Origin: Escherichia coli
GTDB lineage: Bacteria > Pseudomonadota > Gammaproteobacteria > Enterobacterales > Enterobacteriaceae
NCBI RefSeq assembly: GCF_017348835.2
Contig: NZ_CP071375.1
Reading direction: 5' to 3' (one strand)
Length of the DNA stretch: 64,000 bases
A program made the position numbers and the translations under genes. The first letter of the stretch is position 1, and each line of letters opens with the position of its first letter. Shown here piece after piece: positions 10,143-64,000 of the stretch. The notes under the pieces are model-generated. The model was given only the letters and a program-made list of their open reading frames with translations. It was not told the origin of the DNA and did not search any database.

Positions 10143-10841
10143 ATGCAAAAAAACGCTGCGCATACTTATGCCATTTCCAGCTTGTTGGTGCTTTCACTAA
10201 CCGGCTGCGCCTGGATACCCTCCACGCCGCTGGTGCAGGGGGCGACCAGTGCACAACCGGTTCCCGGTCCGACGCCCGTCGCCAACGGTTCTATTTTCCA
10301 GTCTGCTCAGCCGATTAACTATGGCTATCAACCGCTGTTTGAAGATCGTCGACCACGCAATATTGGCGATACGCTGACCATCGTGTTGCAGGAGAACGTC
10401 AGCGCCAGCAAAAGCTCCTCTGCGAATGCCAGCCGTGACGGTAAAACTAATTTTGGCTTTGATACTGTGCCGCGCTATTTGCAGGGGCTGTTTGGTAACG
10501 CTCGTGCCGATGTCGAAGCCTCCGGTGGTAACACGTTCAACGGAAAAGGCGGGGCCAATGCCAGCAATACCTTTAGCGGCACGTTGACGGTGACGGTTGA
10601 CCAGGTACTGGTCAACGGCAATCTGCATGTGGTGGGTGAAAAACAGATTGCCATTAATCAGGGTACCGAATTTATTCGCTTCTCTGGCGTGGTTAATCCA
10701 CGCACTATCAGCGGCAGCAATACCGTACCGTCTACTCAGGTGGCGGATGCGCGCATTGAATACGTAGGCAATGGCTACATTAACGAAGCGCAAAATATGG
10801 GCTGGTTGCAGCGTTTCTTCCTTAACCTGTCGCCAATGTAA
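10143..10841 (+). CDS. flgH: flagellar L-ring lipoprotein FlgH
   Basis: Start moved to ATG 10143 ([24 protein letters not shown], lipobox LTGC), 232 aa. Confidence 0.9.
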
Positions 10842-10852
10842 GTGAGGCTGTG

Positions 10853-11950
10853 GTGATTAAATTTCTCTCTGCATTAATTCTTCTACTGGTTACGACGGCG
10901 GCTCAGGCTGAGCGTATTCGCGATCTCACCAGTGTTCAGGGGGTAAGGCAAAACTCACTGATTGGCTATGGCCTGGTAGTGGGGCTGGATGGCACCGGTG
11001 ACCAGACAACCCAGACGCCGTTTACCACACAAACGCTTAATAACATGCTCTCACAGCTGGGAATTACCGTTCCGACGGGCACCAATATGCAGCTAAAAAA
11101 CGTTGCTGCGGTAATGGTGACGGCGTCACTTCCACCGTTTGGACGTCAGGGGCAAACCATTGACGTGGTGGTTTCTTCCATGGGAAATGCCAAAAGCCTG
11201 CGTGGCGGCACATTGTTGATGACTCCGCTTAAGGGCGTTGACAGTCAGGTGTATGCGCTGGCGCAGGGCAATATTCTGGTTGGCGGCGCAGGAGCCTCCG
11301 CTGGCGGTAGCAGTGTTCAGGTGAACCAACTGAATGGTGGACGGATCACCAATGGTGCGGTTATTGAACGTGAATTGCCCAGCCAGTTTGGCGTCGGGAA
11401 TACCCTTAATTTGCAACTTAACGACGAAGATTTCAGCATGGCGCAGCAAATCGCTGACACCATCAACCGAGTGCGTGGATATGGCAGCGCCACCGCGTTG
11501 GATGCGCGGACTATTCAGGTGCGCGTACCAAGTGGCAACAGTTCCCAGGTCCGTTTCCTTGCAGATATCCAGAATATGCAGGTTAATGTCACCCCGCAGG
11601 ACGCTAAAGTAGTGATTAACTCGCGCACCGGTTCGGTGGTGATGAATCGCGAAGTGACCCTCGACAGCTGCGCGGTAGCGCAGGGGAATCTCTCAGTTAC
11701 GGTAAATCGTCAGGCCAATGTCAGCCAACCAGATACACCGTTTGGTGGCGGACAGACCGTGGTAACGCCACAAACGCAGATCGATTTACGCCAGAGCGGC
11801 GGTTCGCTGCAAAGCGTACGTTCCAGCGCCAGCCTCAATAACGTGGTGCGTGCGCTCAATGCGCTGGGCGCTACGCCGATGGATCTGATGTCTATTTTGC
11901 AATCAATGCAAAGTGCGGGATGTCTGCGGGCAAAACTGGAAATCATCTGA
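10853..11950 (+). CDS. flgI: flagellar P-ring protein FlgI
   Basis: Start set at GTG 10853 ([18 protein letters not shown] signal peptide), 365 aa. Confidence 0.9.
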
Positions 11951-12891: not shown

Positions 12892-12896
12892 ATAAC

Positions 12897-12923
12897 TCAA
12901 GTCCGGCGGGTCGCTGCCGATAA
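12897..12923 (+). promoter_or_regulatory. candidate sigma-28 promoter for flgKL
   Basis: TCAAGTCC-N11-GCCGATAA: perfect -10 element and 5/8 match in the -35 element, 34 nt upstream of flgK. Confidence 0.5.
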
Positions 12924-12956
12924 TACTCTGTAATTGAAGGCTTATAAGGAACCTCC

Positions 12957-14600
12957 ATGTCCAGCTTGATCAATAACGCCATGAGCGGACTGAACGCGGC
13001 CCAGGCGGCGTTAAATACGGCAAGTAATAATATCTCCAGCTATAACGTTGCCGGATATACCCGCCAAACCACTATTATGGCGCAGGCCAATAGCACGTTG
13101 GGTGCTGGCGGCTGGGTTGGCAATGGTGTCTACGTTTCTGGTGTGCAGCGCGAGTATGATGCGTTTATTACCAACCAGTTACGTGCGGCGCAGACGCAAA
13201 GTAGCGGCCTGACTGCCCGCTATGAGCAGATGTCGAAAATCGACAATATGCTCTCCACCAGTACCTCTTCGCTGGCAACACAGATGCAGGATTTCTTCAC
13301 CAGCCTGCAAATGCTGGTGAGTAACGCGGAAGACCCGGCAGCGCGCCAGGCGCTGATTGGGAAATCAGAAGGGGTGGTGAATCAGTTTAAAACCACCGAT
13401 CAGTATCTTCGCGACCAGGACAAACAGGTCAATATCGCGATAGGTGCCAGCGTTGATCAGATCAACAATTACGCTAAACAAATCGCCAGCCTGAACGATC
13501 AAATCTCCCGCCTGACAGGCGTGGGGGCAGGGGCGTCACCTAACAATCTGCTGGATCAACGCGATCAACTGGTGAGCGAATTAAACCAGATTGTTGGTGT
13601 AGAAGTCAGCGTTCAGGATGGCGGCACTTATAACATCACGATGGCCAATGGTTACTCACTGGTTCAGGGAAGTACGGCTCGGCAACTGGCGGCAGTTCCT
13701 TCCAGCGCTGACCCTTCTCGTACGACTGTCGCTTACGTTGATGGGACGGCAGGCAATATTGAGATCCCGGAGAAATTGCTGAATACCGGGTCGCTGGGCG
13801 GCATTCTGACATTCCGTTCTCAGGATCTGGACCAGACGCGTAATACGCTTGGACAACTGGCGCTGGCATTTGCCGAGGCTTTCAACACCCAACACAAAGC
13901 CGGATTTGATGCCAACGGCGATGCTGGTGAAGATTTCTTTGCTATCGGTAAGCCCGCGATTCTGCAAAACACGAAAAACAAAGGTGACGTTGCGATCGGT
14001 GCCACGGTAACTGATGCCTCCGGGGTACTGGCGACAGATTACAAAATCTCGTTCGATAATAATCAGTGGCAGGTCACCCGCCTTGCCAGCAATACCACTT
14101 TTACGGTGACGCCGGATGCCAACGGTAAAGTGGCATTTGATGGTCTGGAGTTGACGTTTACAGGAACGCCTGCCGTTAACGACAGCTTCACGCTGAAACC
14201 AGTAAGTGACGCCATCGTCAACATGGATGTATTAATCACCGACGAAGCGAAAATCGCGATGGCGAGCGAAGAAGATGCGGGTGATAGCGACAACCGCAAC
14301 GGTCAGGCCCTGCTGGATCTGCAAAGCAACAGTAAAACGGTGGGCGGTGCGAAATCCTTTAACGACGCTTATGCCTCGTTAGTGAGTGATATCGGTAATA
14401 AAACCGCGACGTTGAAAACCAGTAGCACCACGCAAGGTAATGTGGTGACGCAGCTTTCCAATCAGCAGCAGTCGATTTCCGGTGTCAATCTCGATGAGGA
14501 GTACGGAAATCTGCAACGTTTTCAGCAGTATTACCTGGCGAATGCGCAGGTTCTGCAGACGGCAAACGCGATTTTTGATGCGCTGATTAACATTCGCTAA
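12957..14600 (+). CDS. flgK: flagellar hook-associated protein 1 FlgK
   Basis: 547-aa ORF recognised as FlgK. Confidence 0.93.
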   Translation: MSSLINNAMSGLNAAQAALNTASNNISSYNVAGYTRQTTIMAQANSTLGAGGWVGNGVYVSGVQREYDAFITNQLRAAQTQSSGLTARYEQMSKIDNMLSTSTSSLATQMQDFFTSLQMLVSNAEDPAARQALIGKSEGVVNQFKTTDQYLRDQDKQVNIAIGASVDQINNYAKQIASLNDQISRLTGVGAGASPNNLLDQRDQLVSELNQIVGVEVSVQDGGTYNITMANGYSLVQGSTARQLAAVPSSADPSRTTVAYVDGTAGNIEIPEKLLNTGSLGGILTFRSQDLDQTRNTLGQLALAFAEAFNTQHKAGFDANGDAGEDFFAIGKPAILQNTKNKGDVAIGATVTDASGVLATDYKISFDNNQWQVTRLASNTTFTVTPDANGKVAFDGLELTFTGTPAVNDSFTLKPVSDAIVNMDVLITDEAKIAMASEEDAGDSDNRNGQALLDLQSNSKTVGGAKSFNDAYASLVSDIGNKTATLKTSSTTQGNVVTQLSNQQQSISGVNLDEEYGNLQRFQQYYLANAQVLQTANAIFDALINIR

Positions 14601-40265: not shown

Positions 40266-40390
40266 GCCCTCGTCGCATCAGGTAACCTTGCCGGTACCTG
40301 ATGCGTTCCGGATTCTGTGGGTCGGATAAGGCGTTTACGCCGCATCCGACAGTCGAGCATCAATGCCTGATGCGATGCTGCGCATCTTAT
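40266..40390. repeat. REP / BIME cluster
   Basis: Several palindromic units, e.g. GTCGGATAAGGCGTTTACGCCGCATCCGAC and GCATCAGGTAACCTTGCCGGTACCTGATGC. Confidence 0.8.
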
Positions 40391-40670
40391 GAGGACGACC
40401 AAACGCCCTCCATATACGCGTCACCCTATATCACCCTTCCGGACTTGCTCAAATAATAAACAATAAACTCTGTTTTTTGATCTCACCCGGTAAAGTCGCC
40501 TATCTTTTCAGCAACAAAACTTGATTAACATCAATTTTGGTATGACCAATGCACCATTCATGTTATTCTCAATAGCGAAGAACATTTTCATTGCTGTAAC
40601 CTGTTGTTAATTAAGAGCTATGTTAATAACCATTAATTAACAATTGGTTAATAAATTTAAGGGGGTCACG
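40391..40670 (+). promoter_or_regulatory. ndh promoter region
   Basis: AT-rich region with TTAATTAA-containing repeats immediately upstream of ndh; FNR/Fis control is established knowledge, sites not mapped. Confidence 0.45.
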
Positions 40671-54988: not shown

Positions 54989-55099
54989 GCGGACCACAAT
55001 ACCAACGAAAGAGCGGGATAAAACTTTACTGTCCTGACTCATTAGCCACATCCTTGCTAACTAAAAAACGGGCGGTAATACCACCGCCCGCTTGCTGAA

Positions 55100-56146: not shown

Positions 56147-56937
56147 TTAACGTCCCCTGTGTTACCTTTCGTTTTATCACGAGCAATAAGCTGGCTGGCA
56201 ATAACCATCACCAGCGACAGCACCAGTAATATGGTTGCCAGCGCGTTAACTTCCGGCGATACGCCGACTTTGACCATCGAATAAATTTTTAACGGCAGAA
56301 TTTCATAACTCGGCCCAGTGACGAACGAAGAAACAACCACATCGTCCATCGACAGGGTAAAGCTTAACACCCAGCCCGCCGCCACCGCTGGCATTGCCAG
56401 TGGCAGAATGATTTTTCGCAGAATGGTAAATTCGCTGGCACCGAGATCTTTCGCCGCTTCCAGCATTCGCACGTCAAAACCTTTCAGGCGCGAATACACC
56501 GTCACCACCACAAATGGCAGGCAGAAGGTGATATGCGAGAACAGCAGCGACCAGAAGCCAAGCTGAATACCCAGCAGCATAAACAGCACCAGCAGCGAAA
56601 TTGCCATCACGATATCTGGTGACATCATTACCACAAACAGCATTCCGCTAACGAACGGCTTACCACGAAAGCGATAACGGTACAGTGCAACTGCCGTCAG
56701 TGAACCGATAAGCGTAGCAAACGTCGCTGAAAACACCGCCATCGTCAATGAATGCTGAGCTGCCTGCAACAGACTGTCGTTGTTCATCAGCAGGCTATAC
56801 CATTTAGTGGTAAAACCCTGCCAGTTGATGCCAAAGCGCGAGCTGTTGAAAGAGTTCACAATCAAAATAATGATTGGAATATACAGGTACGCGTAGATAG
56901 CGGTCATAAAACCGCCGCGAAGCAGTCGACCGATCAT
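56143..56937 (-). CDS. potC: spermidine/putrescine ABC transporter permease
   Basis: 264-aa ORF recognised as PotC; 4-nt overlap with potD. Confidence 0.94.
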   Translation of the reverse strand: MIGRLLRGGFMTAIYAYLYIPIIILIVNSFNSSRFGINWQGFTTKWYSLLMNNDSLLQAAQHSLTMAVFSATFATLIGSLTAVALYRYRFRGKPFVSGMLFVVMMSPDIVMAISLLVLFMLLGIQLGFWSLLFSHITFCLPFVVVTVYSRLKGFDVRMLEAAKDLGASEFTILRKIILPLAMPAVAAGWVLSFTLSMDDVVVSSFVTGPSYEILPLKIYSMVKVGVSPEVNALATILLVLSLVMVIASQLIARDKTKGNTGDVK

Positions 56938-56969
56938 TCGAGTTCCACCTTTTTATTCATAAGGCGGGA
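56934..56969 (-). pseudogene. potB: 3'-terminal remnant of potB, cut off by the prophage junction
   Basis: Minus-strand frame ending in TGA that overlaps the potC ATG (ATGA) encodes ...SRLMNKKVELE; this matches my recollection of the PotB C-terminus, and the frame is open for only 37 codons (to 57047) with no membrane-permease body upstream. Confidence 0.45.
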
Positions 56970-57245
56970 CACTTTCAGGTTTTTGAATTTATTCAATTTT
57001 TTCCTTTCTCCAAAATCTCTCCAAAACTTTTCCCCAAAACAGGACCACGCATTTTACAGCATTTTTATACATGGGTGAGCTTACTAGGACAGAAAAGTAT
57101 TCCAGTTTGTTTACCCATATCGCTTTCCGAATGAGATTTTTGATGTGATTTCTTCGTGTTGAAAAACCACATAATGTGGTATTAGAATTAGCTATCAAGA
57201 TTCACTTTGAATCCGTTTTGAATCCCATTGAACTCAGGAGTGACT

Positions 57246-57449
57246 ATGAAGCGTAAAAGTGTGGCTTTGTTACAAGCCATTGGCTCGGTTATAGCCCTGA
57301 GCCCGACGGTCGTTTCAGCAAATGGCATGCCAGCGAATCCAGTTTCCGCTTTGCGTCAGGATGCTGCGGCTATCAGAGGCGATTTCCAAAAAGCAATGGT
57401 ATCCGTTAACGTTGAAAAGCTGAACAATGCCAGATCAAAAAGAAAGTGA
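57246..57449 (+). CDS. small secreted protein, unknown function (prophage cargo)
   Basis: 67 aa, MKRKSVALLQAIGSVIALSPTVVSA is a signal peptide with a likely cleavage site after VSA; AGGAG Shine-Dalgarno 5 nt upstream; the listed ORF starts at an in-frame TTG at 57228. Confidence 0.55.
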   Translation: MKRKSVALLQAIGSVIALSPTVVSANGMPANPVSALRQDAAAIRGDFQKAMVSVNVEKLNNARSKRK

Positions 57450-57534
57450 GAACACCAAACTCACTTGTGAATAACAAAAGGATAATGAACTGGTTTCTCG
57501 AGTAATCGAAAATCCAGAGGTCTTAAACAGGGTT

Positions 57535-57894
57535 TTGGATAGTCCGCAGGTGCGGGCTATTGTTTGCCAGCATTTTCAGGGGCCTGTTCCGCCACCTTCA
57601 ATGCTTAAAAAGTATGATCAACTGGTGCCTGGGCTTGCAAATCGACTTGTTGAGTTGACCGAAAAAGAGCAGGCTCATCGCCATAAAACAGTGGCTGATA
57701 GCATTGATATTGCCAGAGATGGTCAAACAAAGGCTTTTTGGTTGGCAATATTGATCATCTTAGCTGCCACTGTCTTTGGCGTCATGGGGGAGACAGTTCT
57801 TGCCGGAACTCTCGTTTCAATAGATCTTGTTGCATTGGTTACGGCATTTATTGTTGGAAAACATTATTCTAAGCAGGAACCTGATCAAGATTAG
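57535..57894 (+). CDS. DUF2335-like two-transmembrane-helix membrane protein (prophage cargo)
   Basis: N-terminal PVPPPSMLKKYDQLVPGLANRLVELTEKEQAHRH followed by two hydrophobic helices; start uncertain (TTG 57535 or ATG 57601), no strong Shine-Dalgarno. Confidence 0.5.
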   Translation: MDSPQVRAIVCQHFQGPVPPPSMLKKYDQLVPGLANRLVELTEKEQAHRHKTVADSIDIARDGQTKAFWLAILIILAATVFGVMGETVLAGTLVSIDLVALVTAFIVGKHYSKQEPDQD

Positions 57895-57902
57895 TCTCCG
57901 AA

Positions 57903-57925
57903 CCCCGGTTGATGCCGGGGTTTTT
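57903..57925 (+). terminator. rho-independent terminator after the cargo cassette
   Basis: CCCCGG-TTGATG-CCGGGG followed by TTTTT, 9 nt after the stop codon. Confidence 0.8.
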
Positions 57926-57970
57926 ACACTAGCAAAGCAATATCAACATTTTTCAGCTGCATTTATTTCG

Positions 57971-59089
57971 TCAAACAACCAATTTAACCCATTCCTGACC
58001 ACGAGTATCGTTATAACGATCGGTGGTTGCTTGGACTTTATGTCCCAGTAATGTTTTTGTATCAATACCCTGCGCGCGGTACAGTCGTTCTGACAGGGAG
58101 CGTTGTTCATGAAATGTTGGCGGAGTTTTTCCTGCTGGTGGAGTTATCCCAGCCAGATCCCGTGCTTTGGCAAAGTAGTCGCTCAGGTTGTCTTTACTCA
58201 TCGGCTTTGGTTGTTTCTGGTGCCGACTATGGATTAGATATGGACTTAATATTCTGTCTCGGCACCCATCAATAACTTCTTTTAACGTTATCCCAATGGC
58301 ATCACAGCGTAGTGTAAGCGGTAACGCCAGACGCATTCCGGTTTTTCCCTGGGTGATATGCAAGTGTTCGTTCCACACATCTGAAAAACGCATGTGGCAA
58401 ATGTCATCACGGCGCTGACCAGTAACAATCGCAAGAAGCATTGCGTTACGGATAAAGTGTTTTTCAGGCGTTGCGTTGTAAATTTTTTGCCAGTCTTCCA
58501 GGGTGAGCCTGGCTCTAGTTACTTTAGGGATCGGTTTACGGGTAGCCTCCGGAGGATTCCATCCAGGAGGAACTTCCCCTGCATGCTGTGCTTCTTTATA
58601 AATATCAACCCATAATCCACGATTTACTCTCGCTGTGCTGACCATGTCTTTATCCAGCCACTCATCCAGTATTAATGCAAAGTCTCTTACTTCCAGTTCT
58701 TTCAATGGGTGGTTTCCCAGACGGGAAACCAGGTATGCAGCCATTCGGGCTTTTTCTTTGTGAGTTGTAGCTGCAATATCTCCATTTTTCAGTCGCGTGT
58801 CCTGTATTTTCAGATATCGATCAACCCATGCCTTTAATCTGATACCCCGACGCTTTGTTGCTGACGGACTTTCATCAATTTTGCGCATGAAATATTCAGC
58901 CTCTGCTGCAGCTATTCGCTGATTGGCTGTGGAAGCGATTTTTTCTGCCTTACCTTTGTCTGTTCCGAGCCCGTGAAATTTTCCAGTCACAGGGTTTTTA
59001 TACTGGTAGTAAACTCTGCCAGTTCTGCGATCAAATTTTTCGTAAAGTCCGGCTACGTCAGTGCTGTTTTTTCGTGGCCTCGGTGACAT
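57971..59089 (-). CDS. int: phage integrase (tyrosine recombinase, lambda Int family)
   Basis: 372 aa; lambda-Int-like C-terminal catalytic region (VTGQRRDDICHMRFSDV, PPTFHEQRSLSERLY, LLGHK, conserved Tyr in TDRYNDTRGQEW). Confidence 0.9.
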   Translation of the reverse strand: MSPRPRKNSTDVAGLYEKFDRRTGRVYYQYKNPVTGKFHGLGTDKGKAEKIASTANQRIAAAEAEYFMRKIDESPSATKRRGIRLKAWVDRYLKIQDTRLKNGDIAATTHKEKARMAAYLVSRLGNHPLKELEVRDFALILDEWLDKDMVSTARVNRGLWVDIYKEAQHAGEVPPGWNPPEATRKPIPKVTRARLTLEDWQKIYNATPEKHFIRNAMLLAIVTGQRRDDICHMRFSDVWNEHLHITQGKTGMRLALPLTLRCDAIGITLKEVIDGCRDRILSPYLIHSRHQKQPKPMSKDNLSDYFAKARDLAGITPPAGKTPPTFHEQRSLSERLYRAQGIDTKTLLGHKVQATTDRYNDTRGQEWVKLVV

Positions 59090-59388: not shown

Positions 59389-61860
59389 TTAAAAATCAGC
59401 CTGACTCGGGATCAGTTTTTGCCAGATAACTGAAACGTATTTTGCCTGATAACGGGCGTCATCAAGTGCATTATGGCGCTCACCTTCGAATGGAATAGCC
59501 GTTCTGGCATCGAAGTCTATGGCTTTCCCCAGCTCAACGATTGTGCGTACATCGCGATCGTTGTAGTAACGCCACGGGCAGGGGATCCCCTGCCGTTCGT
59601 ATGAACGGCGCAAAATCGTGTTATCGAAGTTGGCTCCATTTCCCCAGACCTGAACAAAAAATTCACCGGAGTTTTCGTCGATAAATTCCCGCAATTGTAA
59701 CAGTGCATCATCTAACGGGATTTCATCGGTCATAATGGCAGATTGCGCTTCGCGTGATTGCTTAAGCCACCATTTAATGGTGTCCCGATCAATGACTCCG
59801 CCAGCAGTTTCCAGATCGATAGTCTTACTAAATTCCGGTCCCATATCTCCGGTTTGCGGATCGAAAAATATTGCACCTATTGAGATGATCGGGGCATCAG
59901 GATTTTTTCCCATGGTTTCAAGGTCGATCATTAGATGGTCACACGTCCTGCTGGTGGATGTGATTTCTTGATGACCGTTCACCTTAATTGAGTGATCTGC
60001 CGTCTCGCCAGTTTCACTATCGCTGGCATGATGCTGATTGCCGCCAGTGTTCTCCTTGTGTGGATGTTCAGCGCCTTCCATTTTCTCCGGATCATCTTCC
60101 TGAACTTCAACCTGATACTCTTCATCGAATGTTTCCTGGTATGTTGCGTCGCCCATCACCGCGCCACAATCAGGGCAGTTGCCGCCGCCGGTCTGACCGC
60201 AGGCGGTGCAGGCTTTTTCCACTTCCTGTTGCGCCACTGGTTCAGGCTGTTTCGTTTCTGGCTCGTTTTGTAACGCATTTGGGCTGTTTTGTTCCGCTTT
60301 TTGGTAGTTCCGTTCCGATTCATGCTGGTTCTGGTTTACAGAATCGCGGGTCTGGATCCCCTTAACCCATTTCGGATCATTCGGGTCGCTAATCCCTGCA
60401 ACAAATTCTCCGCGAGAGGCAGCAAGCAACTTATCGGCGTCAGGCTGGCTGATATTGGCTGCCTGCATAATTTTGTTTACTTCGTCAGCGGTAACTTTTA
60501 CCGGCTCTGGTTGTGCGGTCGTGTCAGATGCACCAGTATTTTGTTGTGAACCTGAGTATGTACTGTTTTTGCGGGCGAAATATTCTTCTTTCGTGATTTC
60601 AGTAGCCCCGGCAGCCAGTGCCTTATCCAGACCAGAAAGTTTGTTTGCGCGACCGTATTTTTCGCCATCCTTGTCGGTGAAGAGGAAGTAGAACGGCCCC
60701 TCACGCTCTACAGATGGTTCGACTTCCACTTTGCATTCGGTTTTTTCGTTGTCCGGAATTGCCGTTTCCACTGCATCAGTTTCTGGTACTGGCGACGAGA
60801 GAGTATCAGTTGCGCTCTGATTTGTTCCTTCATCTTCAAACACGCCCTTTGTAGTCAGGTATTCAGTAATGTATTTGTTCAGTGCCACAGGGTCTTTGTG
60901 AATGTCGATCGGACGTTCACGGACAAGGCCAAAAATAGTCTGGCGGTCGTAGCGAAGGGCATCAGGCTGTTTGCGCATTGATGCCGAGATACGCTTCCAG
61001 TCTTCGCGGTCGTTGTCGATAACTTCATTTTTTGCCCAGCGATGGATGCTGCCGTCAATGTTTCCGGCATCCACATCACCAGGCCAGAGAGCGTAGGCCA
61101 GTTCGTCATCCAGTGTTTTCCATGTCTGCTTGTATTCGCGATGAATGGCAGCAATGACCGGGCTGATTTTTCCTGTTGAATTTTCAGTGTGCTGTTGATT
61201 GGTTCTGGCGCGGGCGAGATCAACAACAGACGTGTATTTTCCGGTTTCCTTGCGTTCACCTTCGCGACGTTTTTTCCAGATGCGCATCTCTGCCTGAATT
61301 TCGGGCCATTTGGCACCAGGCTTACATTTATGCTTAACCCACCCGATGGCATGCAGCTTAAGCTCCGGATACATGGCGTTAACTTCTGGCATTTTCATCA
61401 ACGCTTCAACGATATGTCCGTCGAATGTTGCCATGTCTTCCTGCAACAATTCCTGTGCGCTAATAACCATATCAACGGTGATGTTTTCACATGTGTCGAA
61501 CTTAACCATGACAGCGTTCTGTACTTCAGGGGCCAGCTTGTCAAAAGTGACGTTCATCGGATCTGATTCAGTCTCAACCGGAACAAAGGAAGCAGACTCC
61601 TCATCCCAGCGGTTTTCCTGCATATATTCAGCATCCCATGAATCGAGGGCAGGGCGGGGTATGCCAGGTTTATCCTCGCAGATAATAAATTTATAAGCGC
61701 AGTCCTGAGCAGCCGGATAATGTTCCAGGAATTGCCAGTGAAATTTTGCTCGAGCACGGCGTTCGTCGCCAGCTTCAATAGCTGTGGCTACAGCCACAGC
61801 GCCTTCTTCCCTTGTTGCCAGTTCGTCAGGAATGGCGGCGCAAATAAAGACTTTACTCAT
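59389..61860 (-). CDS. phage exonuclease of the family often annotated exodeoxyribonuclease VIII, with C-terminal DnaQ-like DEDDh 3'-5' exonuclease domain
   Basis: 823 aa; C-terminus carries Exo I (MIDLETMG), Exo II (VWGNGANFDNTIL) and Exo III (HNALDDARYQAKY) motifs; central acidic/Gln-Pro-rich segment with Zn-ribbon-like CTACGQTGGGNCPDCG; sits in the exo/recE slot of a lambdoid early-left operon. Confidence 0.75.
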   Translation of the reverse strand: MSKVFICAAIPDELATREEGAVAVATAIEAGDERRARAKFHWQFLEHYPAAQDCAYKFIICEDKPGIPRPALDSWDAEYMQENRWDEESASFVPVETESDPMNVTFDKLAPEVQNAVMVKFDTCENITVDMVISAQELLQEDMATFDGHIVEALMKMPEVNAMYPELKLHAIGWVKHKCKPGAKWPEIQAEMRIWKKRREGERKETGKYTSVVDLARARTNQQHTENSTGKISPVIAAIHREYKQTWKTLDDELAYALWPGDVDAGNIDGSIHRWAKNEVIDNDREDWKRISASMRKQPDALRYDRQTIFGLVRERPIDIHKDPVALNKYITEYLTTKGVFEDEGTNQSATDTLSSPVPETDAVETAIPDNEKTECKVEVEPSVEREGPFYFLFTDKDGEKYGRANKLSGLDKALAAGATEITKEEYFARKNSTYSGSQQNTGASDTTAQPEPVKVTADEVNKIMQAANISQPDADKLLAASRGEFVAGISDPNDPKWVKGIQTRDSVNQNQHESERNYQKAEQNSPNALQNEPETKQPEPVAQQEVEKACTACGQTGGGNCPDCGAVMGDATYQETFDEEYQVEVQEDDPEKMEGAEHPHKENTGGNQHHASDSETGETADHSIKVNGHQEITSTSRTCDHLMIDLETMGKNPDAPIISIGAIFFDPQTGDMGPEFSKTIDLETAGGVIDRDTIKWWLKQSREAQSAIMTDEIPLDDALLQLREFIDENSGEFFVQVWGNGANFDNTILRRSYERQGIPCPWRYYNDRDVRTIVELGKAIDFDARTAIPFEGERHNALDDARYQAKYVSVIWQKLIPSQADF

Positions 61861-61953: not shown

Positions 61954-62145
61954 TTAAAGACCTGCCGGGATTTCGATATTATCCTGGTGAATAACTTTAT
62001 CGACCGGGTAACAGTTACCGGGAATTTTCTGTTCGGTTGCTGCAGTCATACACTCCTGCATTGTCCTGTGAACACTGACTGCAATATCAACTGGCTCTCC
62101 GGAAACAAGAAAAACTGTCAGAACAAGTGCAAATGCTGTATTCAT
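61954..62145 (-). CDS. YdfD-like small membrane protein
   Basis: 63 aa from Met19 of the listed ORF (MNTAFALVLTVFLVSGEPVD...); its ATG overlaps the dicB-like stop as ATGA; hydrophobic N-terminus; resembles my recollection of Qin prophage YdfD. Confidence 0.55.
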   Translation of the reverse strand: MNTAFALVLTVFLVSGEPVDIAVSVHRTMQECMTAATEQKIPGNCYPVDKVIHQDNIEIPAGL

Positions 62146-62330
62146 TGCCAGCATCCTTTTTGTATCGGACGTAAACGGGCCAACATTGAAAGAATGCATA
62201 TTTTATTTAATAGCTCCCGTTCGTGTTTTCTCTTGTTAATGGCATCTTCAGTAAATACAGGGTTACTGATAGTGACACCAATTTCAAAACAACCTTCAGA
62301 CGTATTAACGTTTGGTAATAACGTTTTCAT
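62142..62330 (-). CDS. dicB: DicB-like cell-division inhibitor
   Basis: 62 aa from the internal Met of the listed ORF (MKTLLPNVNTSEGCFEIGVTISNPVFTEDAINKRKHERELLNKICILSMLARLRPIQKGCWQ); GAGGG Shine-Dalgarno 8 nt upstream; closely matches remembered DicB; lies directly downstream of the DicF-type sRNA. Confidence 0.65.
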   Translation of the reverse strand: MKTLLPNVNTSEGCFEIGVTISNPVFTEDAINKRKHERELLNKICILSMLARLRPIQKGCWQ

Positions 62331-62499
62331 TATCGCGCCCTCAACAATGAGTTTTGTGATGCGGTGCCTGGTGCCTCCAGGTGACGTTAACCAGTTAACA
62401 ACTAACGCCGGATACAGAGAATCCAACCATAACACTGTTTTTGGTTTTAACTGTTCCGCGTGCGCTTAGCCGCATTCACCGCATCACAAAATTCACTTT

Positions 62500-62557
62500 A
62501 AAAAGGGCGGCAGAGCAGTCACGGAGTAAAACTGATACCGCCAAACGTCACCAGAAA
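62500..62557 (-). ncRNA. dicF: DicF-type small RNA with 3' terminator
   Basis: Minus strand reads TTTCTGGTGACGTTTGGCGGTATCAGTTTTACTCCGTGACTGCTCTGCCGCCC followed by TTTTT; I recognise this 53-nt sequence as DicF; position immediately upstream of the dicB-like gene fits. Confidence 0.75.
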
Positions 62558-62819: not shown

Positions 62820-63059
62820 TCAGTTAGCGTTTCTGGCTAACCAGCGATGCGCGGCAGCTTCGGTTTTAAACGTTTTACTTTTGGTATACGTCATCGCGGT
62901 AAACGTGCCGTCCTGATTGGGAAACACGCCACATACCAGAGATTCGTTGTTGCCAAGCTCGATAGTATCCATGCTGACCTCATTTCCCCTTAACGCTGGG
63001 GTAGCGGAACTAAAAACCTGCTGCGCTGTTATACAAAGTGTTCCCGCCGTCATGTTCAT
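62820..63059 (-). CDS. DUF1391 protein (YdfA / YdaF-like)
   Basis: C-terminal 50 aa (MDTIELGNNESLVCGVFPNQDGTFTAMTYTKSKTFKTEAAAHRWLARNAN) resemble the prophage YdfA/YdaF family; an internal ATG at 62972 has a good Shine-Dalgarno (GAGG, 6 nt), so the true product may be the 50-aa form. Confidence 0.55.
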   Translation of the reverse strand: MNMTAGTLCITAQQVFSSATPALRGNEVSMDTIELGNNESLVCGVFPNQDGTFTAMTYTKSKTFKTEAAAHRWLARNAN

Positions 63060-63153
63060 ACGCCTCGGGCTGGCTACTTAATCCCTGACCACAGCCGGGT
63101 AACTCTAGGTATTGCCCTGTATTGTGTGGGACGGGATGGGTTGGTATGGGAAA

Positions 63154-63195
63154 ACTATAGGAAATGCCTAATTGCTTGTCAATAGGCCATGCCTA
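63154..63195 (-). promoter_or_regulatory. PL-like early-left promoter with repressor operators
   Basis: Minus strand TTGACA (63182-63177) -17 nt- TATAGT (63159-63154); flanked by TAGGA-AAT-GCCTA (63158-63170) and TAGGC-CAT-GCCTA (63183-63195), the same TAGGC-N3-GCCTA motif found at the PR-like promoter. Confidence 0.6.
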
Positions 63196-63290
63196 ATGAT
63201 TTGGGTGCGACCTAATAGGTGATGGTTTGTGGGAGAGATAGTAGGAGTTAACTAACGGGAACTAGGAATTTCCCGTCGGACCATATAAGT

Positions 63291-63767
63291 TTAAGTTCCT
63301 GTCTTGGTGATGTTCTGGCTTTTCCGTTTTGATTCTTGATTTTTCAGATAGTTAGCTACCTTCATTTCCATTGCGGCAATGTAGGCGCGAACGTCATGAT
63401 CAACCCAACTAGGCTCCGTAGCATTTCCAGATAAGAGGAAAGCCACAATTGCTCTTTTTTCATCAGAGGCGGCTTGATAAAGGCTGTTTATGTCTAAAAG
63501 TTCACTTTTTGTATCTGAAGTGGATGGGGTTGGTATGGGGTATTCGTTAAGCCCCCAATGCTCTGGACCAACCACATCAGAAAAGAAACGCCATAGTTCT
63601 GGAAGTTTGTCTTTACTTATCGAACCTTTCTTAATCCAGTCATGGATTGATGGTGGTTGGACTTTGAAATGACGTGCGATTTCCGCCTTTGATTTGACGG
63701 CTCCTGATGCAATTTTTTTGTTAATGGCCTGCTCTATCGCTCGGCCTAAGTCTTTACCACTAAGCAT
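63291..63767 (-). CDS. prophage repressor (CI-equivalent; RacR-like)
   Basis: 158 aa; HTH-like segment SKAEIARHFKVQPPSIHDWIKKG; located between PL-like and PR-like promoter/operator regions and divergent from the Cro-like gene; AGGAG Shine-Dalgarno. Confidence 0.65.
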   Translation of the reverse strand: MLSGKDLGRAIEQAINKKIASGAVKSKAEIARHFKVQPPSIHDWIKKGSISKDKLPELWRFFSDVVGPEHWGLNEYPIPTPSTSDTKSELLDINSLYQAASDEKRAIVAFLLSGNATEPSWVDHDVRAYIAAMEMKVANYLKNQESKRKSQNITKTGT

Positions 63768-63794
63768 TGCTTAATAGTCTCCTATGCGCATCGC

Positions 63795-63864
63795 GTTAGG
63801 CAATCCCTACTCTCGAAGCGTTAGGCATAGCCTATTGACAATCGCATTAGGCTAAGCCTAATAT
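63795..63864 (+). promoter_or_regulatory. PR-like promoter with three operator sites
   Basis: TTGACA (63835-63840), 18-nt spacer, TAATAT (63859-63864); operators TAGGC-AAT-CCCTA (63797-63809, imperfect), TAGGC-ATA-GCCTA (63822-63834) and the 17-bp perfect palindrome ATTAGGCT-A-AGCCTAAT (63846-63862) overlapping spacer and -10. Confidence 0.6.
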
Positions 63865-63891
63865 TATTGTGTGTTTTTTGGAGTTCATTCG

Positions 63892-64000
63892 ATGAAAAAA
63901 GATAACTATTCATTCAAACGAGCTTGTGCTGTTGTCGGTGGGCAATCAGCAATGGCTAGGCTTTTAGGTGTATCTCCTCCAAGCGTAAATCAATGGATCA
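63892..64000 (+). CDS. Cro-like / YdaS-like HTH protein (5' part only; truncated by window end)
   Basis: MKKDNYSFKRACAVVGGQSAMARLLGVSPPSVNQWI, HTH motif, GGAG Shine-Dalgarno about 9 nt upstream, divergent from the repressor. Confidence 0.6.
   Translation, partial: MKKDNYSFKRACAVVGGQSAMARLLGVSPPSVNQWI

Follow-up and report, generated by a model that had tools for sequence, protein, structure and literature searches.

A Rac-type RacR–YdaS pair reads as the CI/Cro/CII-like immunity switch of a lambdoid prophage inserted where potB meets potC in Escherichia coli

A divergent pair of small genes closes the window (the whole stretch of Escherichia coli DNA analysed here, 64,000 nucleotides), and its nature raises a simple question: is it part of a phage lysis/lysogeny switch, or does its rightward gene begin a toxin–antitoxin operon that runs out of the window? 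The present evidence strongly favours the former, and we put a probability of about 0.9 on a lambdoid immunity (lysis/lysogeny) region of the CI/Cro/CII type, carried by a prophage with Rac-type immunity specificity at the potB/potC junction. The pair comprises:

racR, 63291–63767, minus strand: prophage repressor of 158 aa (stop codon included in the coordinates), called from its open reading frame and a RacR equivalog match
ydaS, 5' part, 63892–64000, plus strand: Cro-like helix-turn-helix (HTH) regulator, of which the first 36 codons are visible and the rest is cut off by the window end

The leftward protein matches the equivalog model NF049929 of NCBIfam, named 'DNA-binding transcriptional repressor RacR', with 246.8 bits against a cutoff of 200 (E = 8.8e-74, residues 1–145), and aligns without gaps to RacR of K-12 MG1655 (b1356) at 145 of 158 residues (91.8%). 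At the nucleotide level the two genes differ at 49 of 477 positions (about 10%) with a pN/pS of 0.13, which indicates purifying selection. The resemblance to RacR that had been noticed by eye, and for which an alignment was suggested as a check, is thus borne out, and by sequence the 158-aa frame is identified as RacR, a functional analogue of lambda CI. A Pfam search returned no Peptidase_S24 match at E <= 0.1, that is, no domain for RecA-stimulated autocleavage, and no Pfam domain above threshold, with HTH matches appearing below threshold only; in the PDB, no solved-structure relative of RacR was detectable by sequence. The S24 domain is not universal in lambdoid repressors, so that its absence is compatible with lambdoid membership. 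In K-12, RacR has been reported to bind the racR–ydaS spacer in vitro and in vivo and to repress ydaS (PMC9638921); it behaves as an octamer, and repression of the ydaST promoter together with autoregulation of racR has been described for K-12 only (PMC9638921, PMC11879457).

The rightward gene starts with an ATG at 63892–63894, 8 nt past a GGAG at 63880–63883, and its visible translation, MKKDNYSFKRACAVVGGQSAMARLLGVSPPSVNQWI, fills exactly 36 codons to position 63999, with position 64000 being the first base of codon 37. Of these 36 residues, 34 are identical in K-12 YdaS, and the fragment alone passes the Pfam YdaS family PF15943 (38.6 bits, cutoff 30). The full-length relative could be read in E. 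coli PE164 (NZ_CP114128.1), which has 4 mismatches to the window in 49,497 nt, none in 10,666 nt and 1 in 1,025 nt; with a total of 5 SNPs over about 61 kb, and a single IS3 insertion at window positions 62976–62978, PE164 is effectively clonal with the source. PE164 YdaS has 107 aa and is 88% identical to K-12 YdaS; it passes PF15943 with 103.9 bits and also P22_Cro (35.3 bits, cutoff 30.2), and solved Cro proteins match it, e.g., 3bd1 at E = 2.8e-10. The rightward gene can therefore be assigned by homology as YdaS, a Cro analogue, in line with the earlier suggestion that it resembles a Cro-like YdaS. The family matches of both proteins above cutoff and the purifying selection on racR argue that the two frames are real genes and not chance. 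In K-12, raised YdaS leads to excision of Rac.

The 124-bp spacer between the two genes contains three 20-nt direct repeats, 25–26 bp apart, each with one inverted repeat inside it. Its elements, together with a reverse promoter within ydaS, are:

RacR operator O1, TTAGGCTAAGCCTAA, 63847–63861, no strand: perfect consensus match, overlapping the PydaST −10 box
RacR operator O2, TTAGGCATAGCCTAT, 63821–63835, no strand: consensus match, abutting the PydaST −35 box
further RacR inverted repeat, TTAGGCAATCCCTAC, 63796–63810, no strand: one half-site degenerate, identical in K-12
published operator O3, CTAAGCATTGCTTAA, 63760–63774, no strand: its spacer contains the racR start codon (CAT, 63765–63767); three consensus mismatches
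PydaST, the P_R analogue, 63835–63864, plus strand: −35 TTGACA (63835–63840), 18-nt spacer, −10 TAATAT (63859–63864)
−10 box of PracR4, the P_RE analogue, TACGCT, 63982–63987, minus strand: located by the published box sequences, with the −35 box just beyond the window end

The operator motif derived from the window sequence alone agrees with the published RacR consensus, (T/A)TAGGC-n3-GCCTA(T/A), which is based on footprinting and places O1 at the ydaST promoter (PMC9638921); a later paper described four inverted repeats in the racR–ydaS spacer. O3 is also identical in K-12. With at most 2 mismatches, the operator pattern occurs at six sites in the 64-kb window, five of which lie in two clusters within 750 nt. 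First-order Markov simulations (n = 200) gave at most 2 such sites in any 750-nt span, and the observed clustering is thus far beyond chance. When 3 mismatches were allowed, no window-wide enrichment was seen (22 sites found, 22.9 expected), and the informative operator evidence is confined to the matches with at most 2 mismatches and their clustering. PydaST agrees with the promoter consensus at 10 of 12 positions; the same boxes have been confirmed by mutagenesis in K-12 (PMC11879457), where the promoter gives rise to a bicistronic ydaS–ydaT message (PMC9638921, PMC11879457). A three-way alignment with K-12 shows no change in the operator half-sites or the promoter boxes; the substitutions sit in the n3 spacers or between sites, from which it can be argued that this prophage shares the immunity specificity of K-12 Rac. 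The −35 equivalent of PracR4 in PE164 reads CTGACG instead of the TTGACG of K-12, a single substitution, and PracR4 would be expected to work in this prophage as a reverse, YdaT-activated promoter.

The second operator cluster lies to the left of racR, about 0.65 kb from the first:

putative O_L/P_L, 63154–63196, minus strand: two RacR-type operators overlapping a leftward promoter-like site

The two candidate operators, ATAGGAAATGCCTAA at 63157–63171 and ATAGGCCATGCCTAA at 63182–63196, are both ATAGGnnATGCCTAA-type sites, and the promoter-like site that they overlap (−35 TTGACA at 63182–63177, −10 TATAGT at 63159–63154) agrees with the consensus at 11 of 12 positions. Their half-sites are kept in K-12, with changes in spacer positions only. 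By position and architecture the cluster looks like an O_L/P_L analogue, and RacR very probably binds the two predicted sites at 63157–63196 as well; an octameric RacR could even loop O_L to O_R over only about 0.65 kb. An analogous P_L has been demonstrated in CP-933P. No published description of a Rac O_L/P_L was found in the literature searched, which does not prove that the site is unpublished, and the papers searched make no mention of RacR binding to this leftward site. Depletion of RacR in K-12 has been reported to raise ydaG, ydaF, kilR, ydaE, racC, ydaC and ralA 40- to 70-fold, and xisR and intR about 100-fold; this published leftward derepression of Rac would find a simple and testable explanation in the conserved pair of operators to the left of racR.

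The genes to the left place the pair in a prophage. Homology of the host DNA to K-12 runs as far as window position 56959, which lies 22 nt inside the 3' end of potB, and the following features lie between this point and racR:

integrase gene, 57971–59089, after two small genes
excisionase gene (xis), left of racR, between the integrase and exonuclease genes
exonuclease gene, 59389–61860, for a protein of 823 aa
ydfD and dicB, 61954–62330
DicF RNA, 62505–62556, Rfam score 76.7 bits against a threshold of 48
DUF1391 gene, between DicF and the putative O_L/P_L, which is followed by racR

The racR–ydaS pair is thus set between early-left genes (int, xis, exonuclease and dicB) and, as read in PE164, O-like and DnaC-like genes. 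The element is a lambdoid prophage at the potB/potC junction, with Rac-type immunity and a Qin-like division-inhibition cassette, and it is distinct from Rac itself, which occupies ttcA and has another integrase as well as kilR/recET. Because DicF and dicB are nearby, immunity of the Qin type (DicA/DicC) was also considered; it was rejected, since repressor, Cro-like gene and operators alike belong to the Rac type. A Rac-type immunity region with 87.4% identity is also present in the sequenced phage vB_EcoS-683R6, whose annotation runs from the repressor to cI, cII, O and a DnaC-like gene.

What follows ydaS was read in PE164, in which racR and ydaS are succeeded by a 141-aa 'toxin YdaT family protein' gene that overlaps the end of ydaS, then by a replisome-organiser gene (annotated incomplete), a DnaC-like ATP-binding gene and more lambdoid genes as far as RusA and an antiterminator. 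The genes for YdaT, the replisome organiser and the DnaC-like protein occupy the cII–O–P positions, and ydaS that of cro. PE164 YdaT passes Pfam PF06254 with 39.6 bits (cutoff 21), is only about 35% identical to K-12 YdaT, and is near-identical to PDB 3c4r (E = 4e-89) and close to 8bt1, the YdaT of CP-933P (E = 2.2e-79); on these matches, it is assigned to the CP-933P allele. The YdaT-box ATGATTCATGAAAATCAA, an inverted repeat of the pattern (A/T)TGATT-n6-AATCAA, is the same in PE164 as in K-12, and in each of them it extends across the ydaT start codon. When up to 3 mismatches were allowed, this pattern showed no overall enrichment in the PE164 and K-12 sequences, and the one meaningful match is the site at the start of ydaT, which has 1 mismatch. 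The YdaT proteins of Rac and CP-933P have been reported to bind each other's boxes and to activate a Rac box-dependent promoter equally in vivo, and a Rac/CP-933P hybrid should therefore be functional.

The same arrangement is widespread. Among 5426 complete E. coli genomes, 1882 contain the racR–ydaS region, and 1085 of these cover at least 80% of window positions 63000–64000. The contiguous block of racR, ydaS and CP-933P-type ydaT occurs in 529 genomes and the K-12 configuration in 555; the sum of 1084 accounts for about all of the 1085, so that essentially every genome with the region has a ydaT-family gene behind ydaS. Judging from these relatives, a ydaT homologue very probably follows ydaS just past position 64000 in the source; the check proposed earlier, to look for such a gene downstream, gives a positive result in near-clonal PE164. 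No complete E. coli genome in the collection searched gave an uninterrupted 100% match to the window end. Sequence common to the two configurations extends up to about 24 nt into ydaT, and ydaT-only matches in other prophages start exactly at the YdaT-box, which indicates that the module junction coincides with this conserved element of roughly 30 bp. What this analysis establishes directly is the identity of the genes, the sequences of operators and promoters and how far these are conserved, and the order of the downstream genes in a near-clonal genome.

Taken together, these elements outline a switch of the lambdoid kind. RacR, a CI analogue that has no LexA-like cleavage domain, would bind the spacer inverted repeats and shut off the strong PydaST, and from the same operators would regulate its own gene. 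At the putative O_L/P_L, about 0.65 kb away, it very probably also silences an early-left operon of the DUF1391 gene, DicF, dicB, ydfD, the exonuclease gene, xis and int. Once RacR falls, PydaST would transcribe ydaS and then, beyond the window, ydaT for the CII analogue and the replication genes; YdaT would bind the YdaT-box across its own start codon and activate the reverse promoter PracR4 inside ydaS, thus feeding back on racR. In K-12, the tetrameric HTH protein YdaT has been shown to bind the YdaT-box, to activate PracR4 up to 29-fold and to raise racR expression (PMC11879457), which makes PracR4 and YdaT analogues of P_RE and CII. Binding, repression, activation and toxicity are known from experiments on K-12 and CP-933P, and this prophage would be expected to behave in the same way. 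All corresponding elements inside the window are present and conserved, and those outside it are present in near-clonal PE164. The divergent repressor and Cro-like genes, with several operators overlapping promoters, follow the lambdoid layout, as does, at the level of sequence, the second operator/promoter cluster beyond the repressor gene.

RacR might also hold host-damaging genes in check. The ydaT allele that very probably follows here is of the CP-933P type, which has been reported to be non-toxic, and the cargo under RacR is therefore perhaps not ydaS–ydaT. We tentatively suggest, as a possibility somewhat less likely to hold than to fail, that it is instead the Qin-like DicF/DicB/YdfD cassette, controlled through the apparently undescribed O_L/P_L at 63154–63196. 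If this reading is true, racR would be conditionally essential here for a reason unlike that in K-12.

A very different explanation is that racR–ydaS–ydaT forms an atypical toxin–antitoxin or 'toxin-repressor' addiction module, in which YdaS and/or YdaT kill and RacR restrains them. The idea goes back to a 2007 algorithm that flagged ydaS and ydaT as a pair, and it was taken up by two papers in 2017, according to which racR is essential in K-12, ectopic expression of ydaS or ydaT is toxic, and both are toxins repressed by RacR. It survives in the Pfam family names YdaS_toxin and YdaT_toxin and in the RefSeq label 'toxin YdaT family protein' of the downstream gene in PE164, and YdaT of K-12 does cause filamentation and death. 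This toxicity, however, arises through transcriptional activation of host rcsA and is lost in some hosts; co-expression of YdaS leaves it unchanged, and YdaS alone is non-toxic. YdaT has been described as a POU-like HTH DNA-binding tetramer, its structure has been solved, and with its defined operator it is a CII analogue. A 2010 study already saw no toxin–antitoxin behaviour, the genes lie in cro/cII positions, and Jurenas et al. 2021 argued explicitly for Cro and CII analogues and against a toxin–antitoxin system. In this prophage, the downstream allele, taken from PE164 to be of the CP-933P type, would be one reported as non-toxic. The operon answers to a separate phage repressor and not to a toxin–antitoxin complex. 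The downstream protein in PE164 matches solved YdaT structures and the window gene is Cro-like, and neither belongs to a toxin family with a defined toxic biochemistry. The addiction-module explanation has already been largely refuted and is very improbable here. From the earlier note, which had seen a Rac-like immunity pair starting a toxin–antitoxin-like operon, the immunity pair stands through the identities of RacR and YdaS, while the toxin–antitoxin part falls against literature that treats YdaS as an analogue of Cro and YdaT as one of CII, and that finds no neutralisation of YdaT by YdaS. Accordingly, the Pfam and RefSeq 'toxin' labels on YdaS and YdaT should not count as evidence for a toxin–antitoxin system.

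It is equally improbable that the locus is what is left of a decaying prophage switch, inert and without a regulatory role today: prophages of the Rac kind are cryptic in many cases, and in PE164 the replisome-organiser gene is annotated incomplete, other genes are frameshifted and IS3 sits between the leftward promoter and its operon, but racR and the visible ydaS are intact, the pN/pS of racR is low, the half-sites and promoter boxes are invariant although racR itself has diverged from K-12, and the same module is functional in K-12 (PMC9638921, PMC11879457).

The locus is best read, then, as a lambdoid immunity region of an already known kind, with components whose genetics and biochemistry have been worked out, as has the structure in the case of YdaT; as a phage switch it is ordinary, and beyond correct annotation its importance is small. 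The prophage is a mosaic in which the repressor, the Cro analogue and the operators are of the Rac type, the CII analogue is, judging from PE164, of the CP-933P type, and the division inhibitors are of the Qin type; it varies only in the usual manner of lambdoid prophages, and it illustrates the exchange of modules at a conserved 30-bp junction, the YdaT-box.

Among known systems, the Rac prophage of K-12 is alike in its spacer architecture of 123/124 bp, the operator half-sites, the PydaST boxes, the −10 box of PracR4 and the putative O_L/P_L cluster left of racR, and the YdaT-box of PE164 is identical to its own. The differences lie in the site (ttcA in Rac, potB/potC here), the integrase, the left arm (kilR/racC/recET in Rac; DicF/dicB/ydfD and the 823-aa exonuclease here) and the end of ydaS, which in PE164 has lost the original stop codon, extends to 107 aa and overlaps ydaT.

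CP-933P, or Sp12, of E. coli O157:H7 (paaR2-paaA2-parE2 / ydaS-ydaT) shares the YdaT type (as read in PE164), the CI/Cro/CII-like layout and a described P_L/O_L analogue. In contrast, its repressor, PaaR2, shares a transcript with a true ParE2/PaaA2 toxin–antitoxin pair, and its YdaS is only 26% identical to that of Rac; no paaA2–parE2 genes were found beside racR in this window.

The cI–cro–cII region of lambda likewise has a divergent repressor and Cro-like gene, a short spacer with several imperfect palindromic operators overlapping promoters, a second operator/promoter cluster past the repressor gene, a reverse activator-dependent promoter in the rightward operon, and a CII-like activator gene followed by replication genes (here read in PE164). 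The distance between O_L and O_R is 2.4 kb in lambda, against about 0.65 kb here. RacR shows no detectable sequence similarity to lambda CI beyond the HTH (an identity of 15% has been quoted) and is without the S24 domain, and in the Rac type one operator overlaps the racR start codon. The Rac switch also departs from a copy of lambda in that YdaS reportedly does not repress racR in K-12 (PMC9638921) and YdaT is without effect on excision.

Type II toxin–antitoxin systems, finally, resemble the locus in having two small adjacent co-transcribed genes, one of them encoding an HTH protein, and the K-12 version is toxic when overexpressed; they differ from it in that here, according to the literature, no protein neutralises a partner, no toxin–antitoxin complex autoregulates the operon, and the presumed 'toxin' is a transcription factor.

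As far as the junction at 56959, the window consists of ~57 kb of E. coli core chromosome that extends from the flg-rne-fab-pts region to pot. This assignment is confirmed by the following ordinary host RNA elements, detected in an Rfam scan:

18970-19306, rne 5' UTR
21167-21335, SraB
40320-40396, naRNA4

Between cobB and potD (54994-55020), about 1.3 kb carrying ycfZ and ymfA is absent relative to K-12, and the gene order of PE164, a near-clonal relative, confirms a cobB-potD arrangement without these genes. Homology with K-12 stops at 56959, which lies 22 nt inside the 3' end of potB and adjoins the start of potC. The left end of the lambdoid prophage, including the small genes located between the junction and the integrase, is as follows:

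56937-57970, prophage-host junction region
57246-57449, hypothetical small gene
57535-57894, small DUF2335 gene

At the immunity end, PE164 carries an IS3-family element (10721-11934 in the PE164 segment compared) that is not present in the window, where the insertion point corresponds to 62976-62978. The site has the putative P_L, a leftward promoter-like site left of the repressor gene racR, on one side and an annotated 50-aa DUF1391 gene on the other, and it falls within a longer reading frame of 79 aa (62820-63059). The insertion should uncouple the leftward operon of PE164 from RacR control. The Cro-like gene ydaS of PE164 (12893-13216 in that segment) has CGA in place of the K-12 stop codon TGA, and its product consequently reaches 107 aa, compared with 98 aa in K-12; the extended frame reads through the YdaT-box, an inverted repeat across the ydaT start codon, and overlaps the CII-like gene ydaT by 17 nt.

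The Rac-type racR-ydaS module gives way to alternative ydaT alleles at the conserved YdaT-box together with the first eight codons of ydaT. This roughly 30-bp element (13193-13223 in the PE164 segment, 10678-10708 in the corresponding K-12 segment) is common to flanks that are otherwise unrelated, and it is likely to be a recombination junction for module exchange.

Further to the left, the prophage possesses a Qin-like division-inhibitor cassette and a large exonuclease reading frame, all on the minus strand:

61954-62556, minus, Qin-like cassette (DicF, dicB, ydfD)
62505-62556, minus, DicF sRNA (Rfam 76.7 bits, threshold 48)
about 62142-62330, minus, dicB
about 61954-62145, minus, ydfD
59389-61860, minus, 823-aa reading frame, labelled 'exonuclease' or '3'-5' exonuclease' in relatives

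A putative RacR-controlled leftward promoter lies upstream of the cassette. The N-terminal two-thirds of the 823-aa product is mostly acidic and of low complexity, and the position it takes is held in K-12 Rac by recE/recT. Similarly, K-12 Rac has kilR at the place occupied here by DicF, dicB and ydfD, so that in this prophage division inhibitors of the Qin type stand alongside a Rac-type immunity region.
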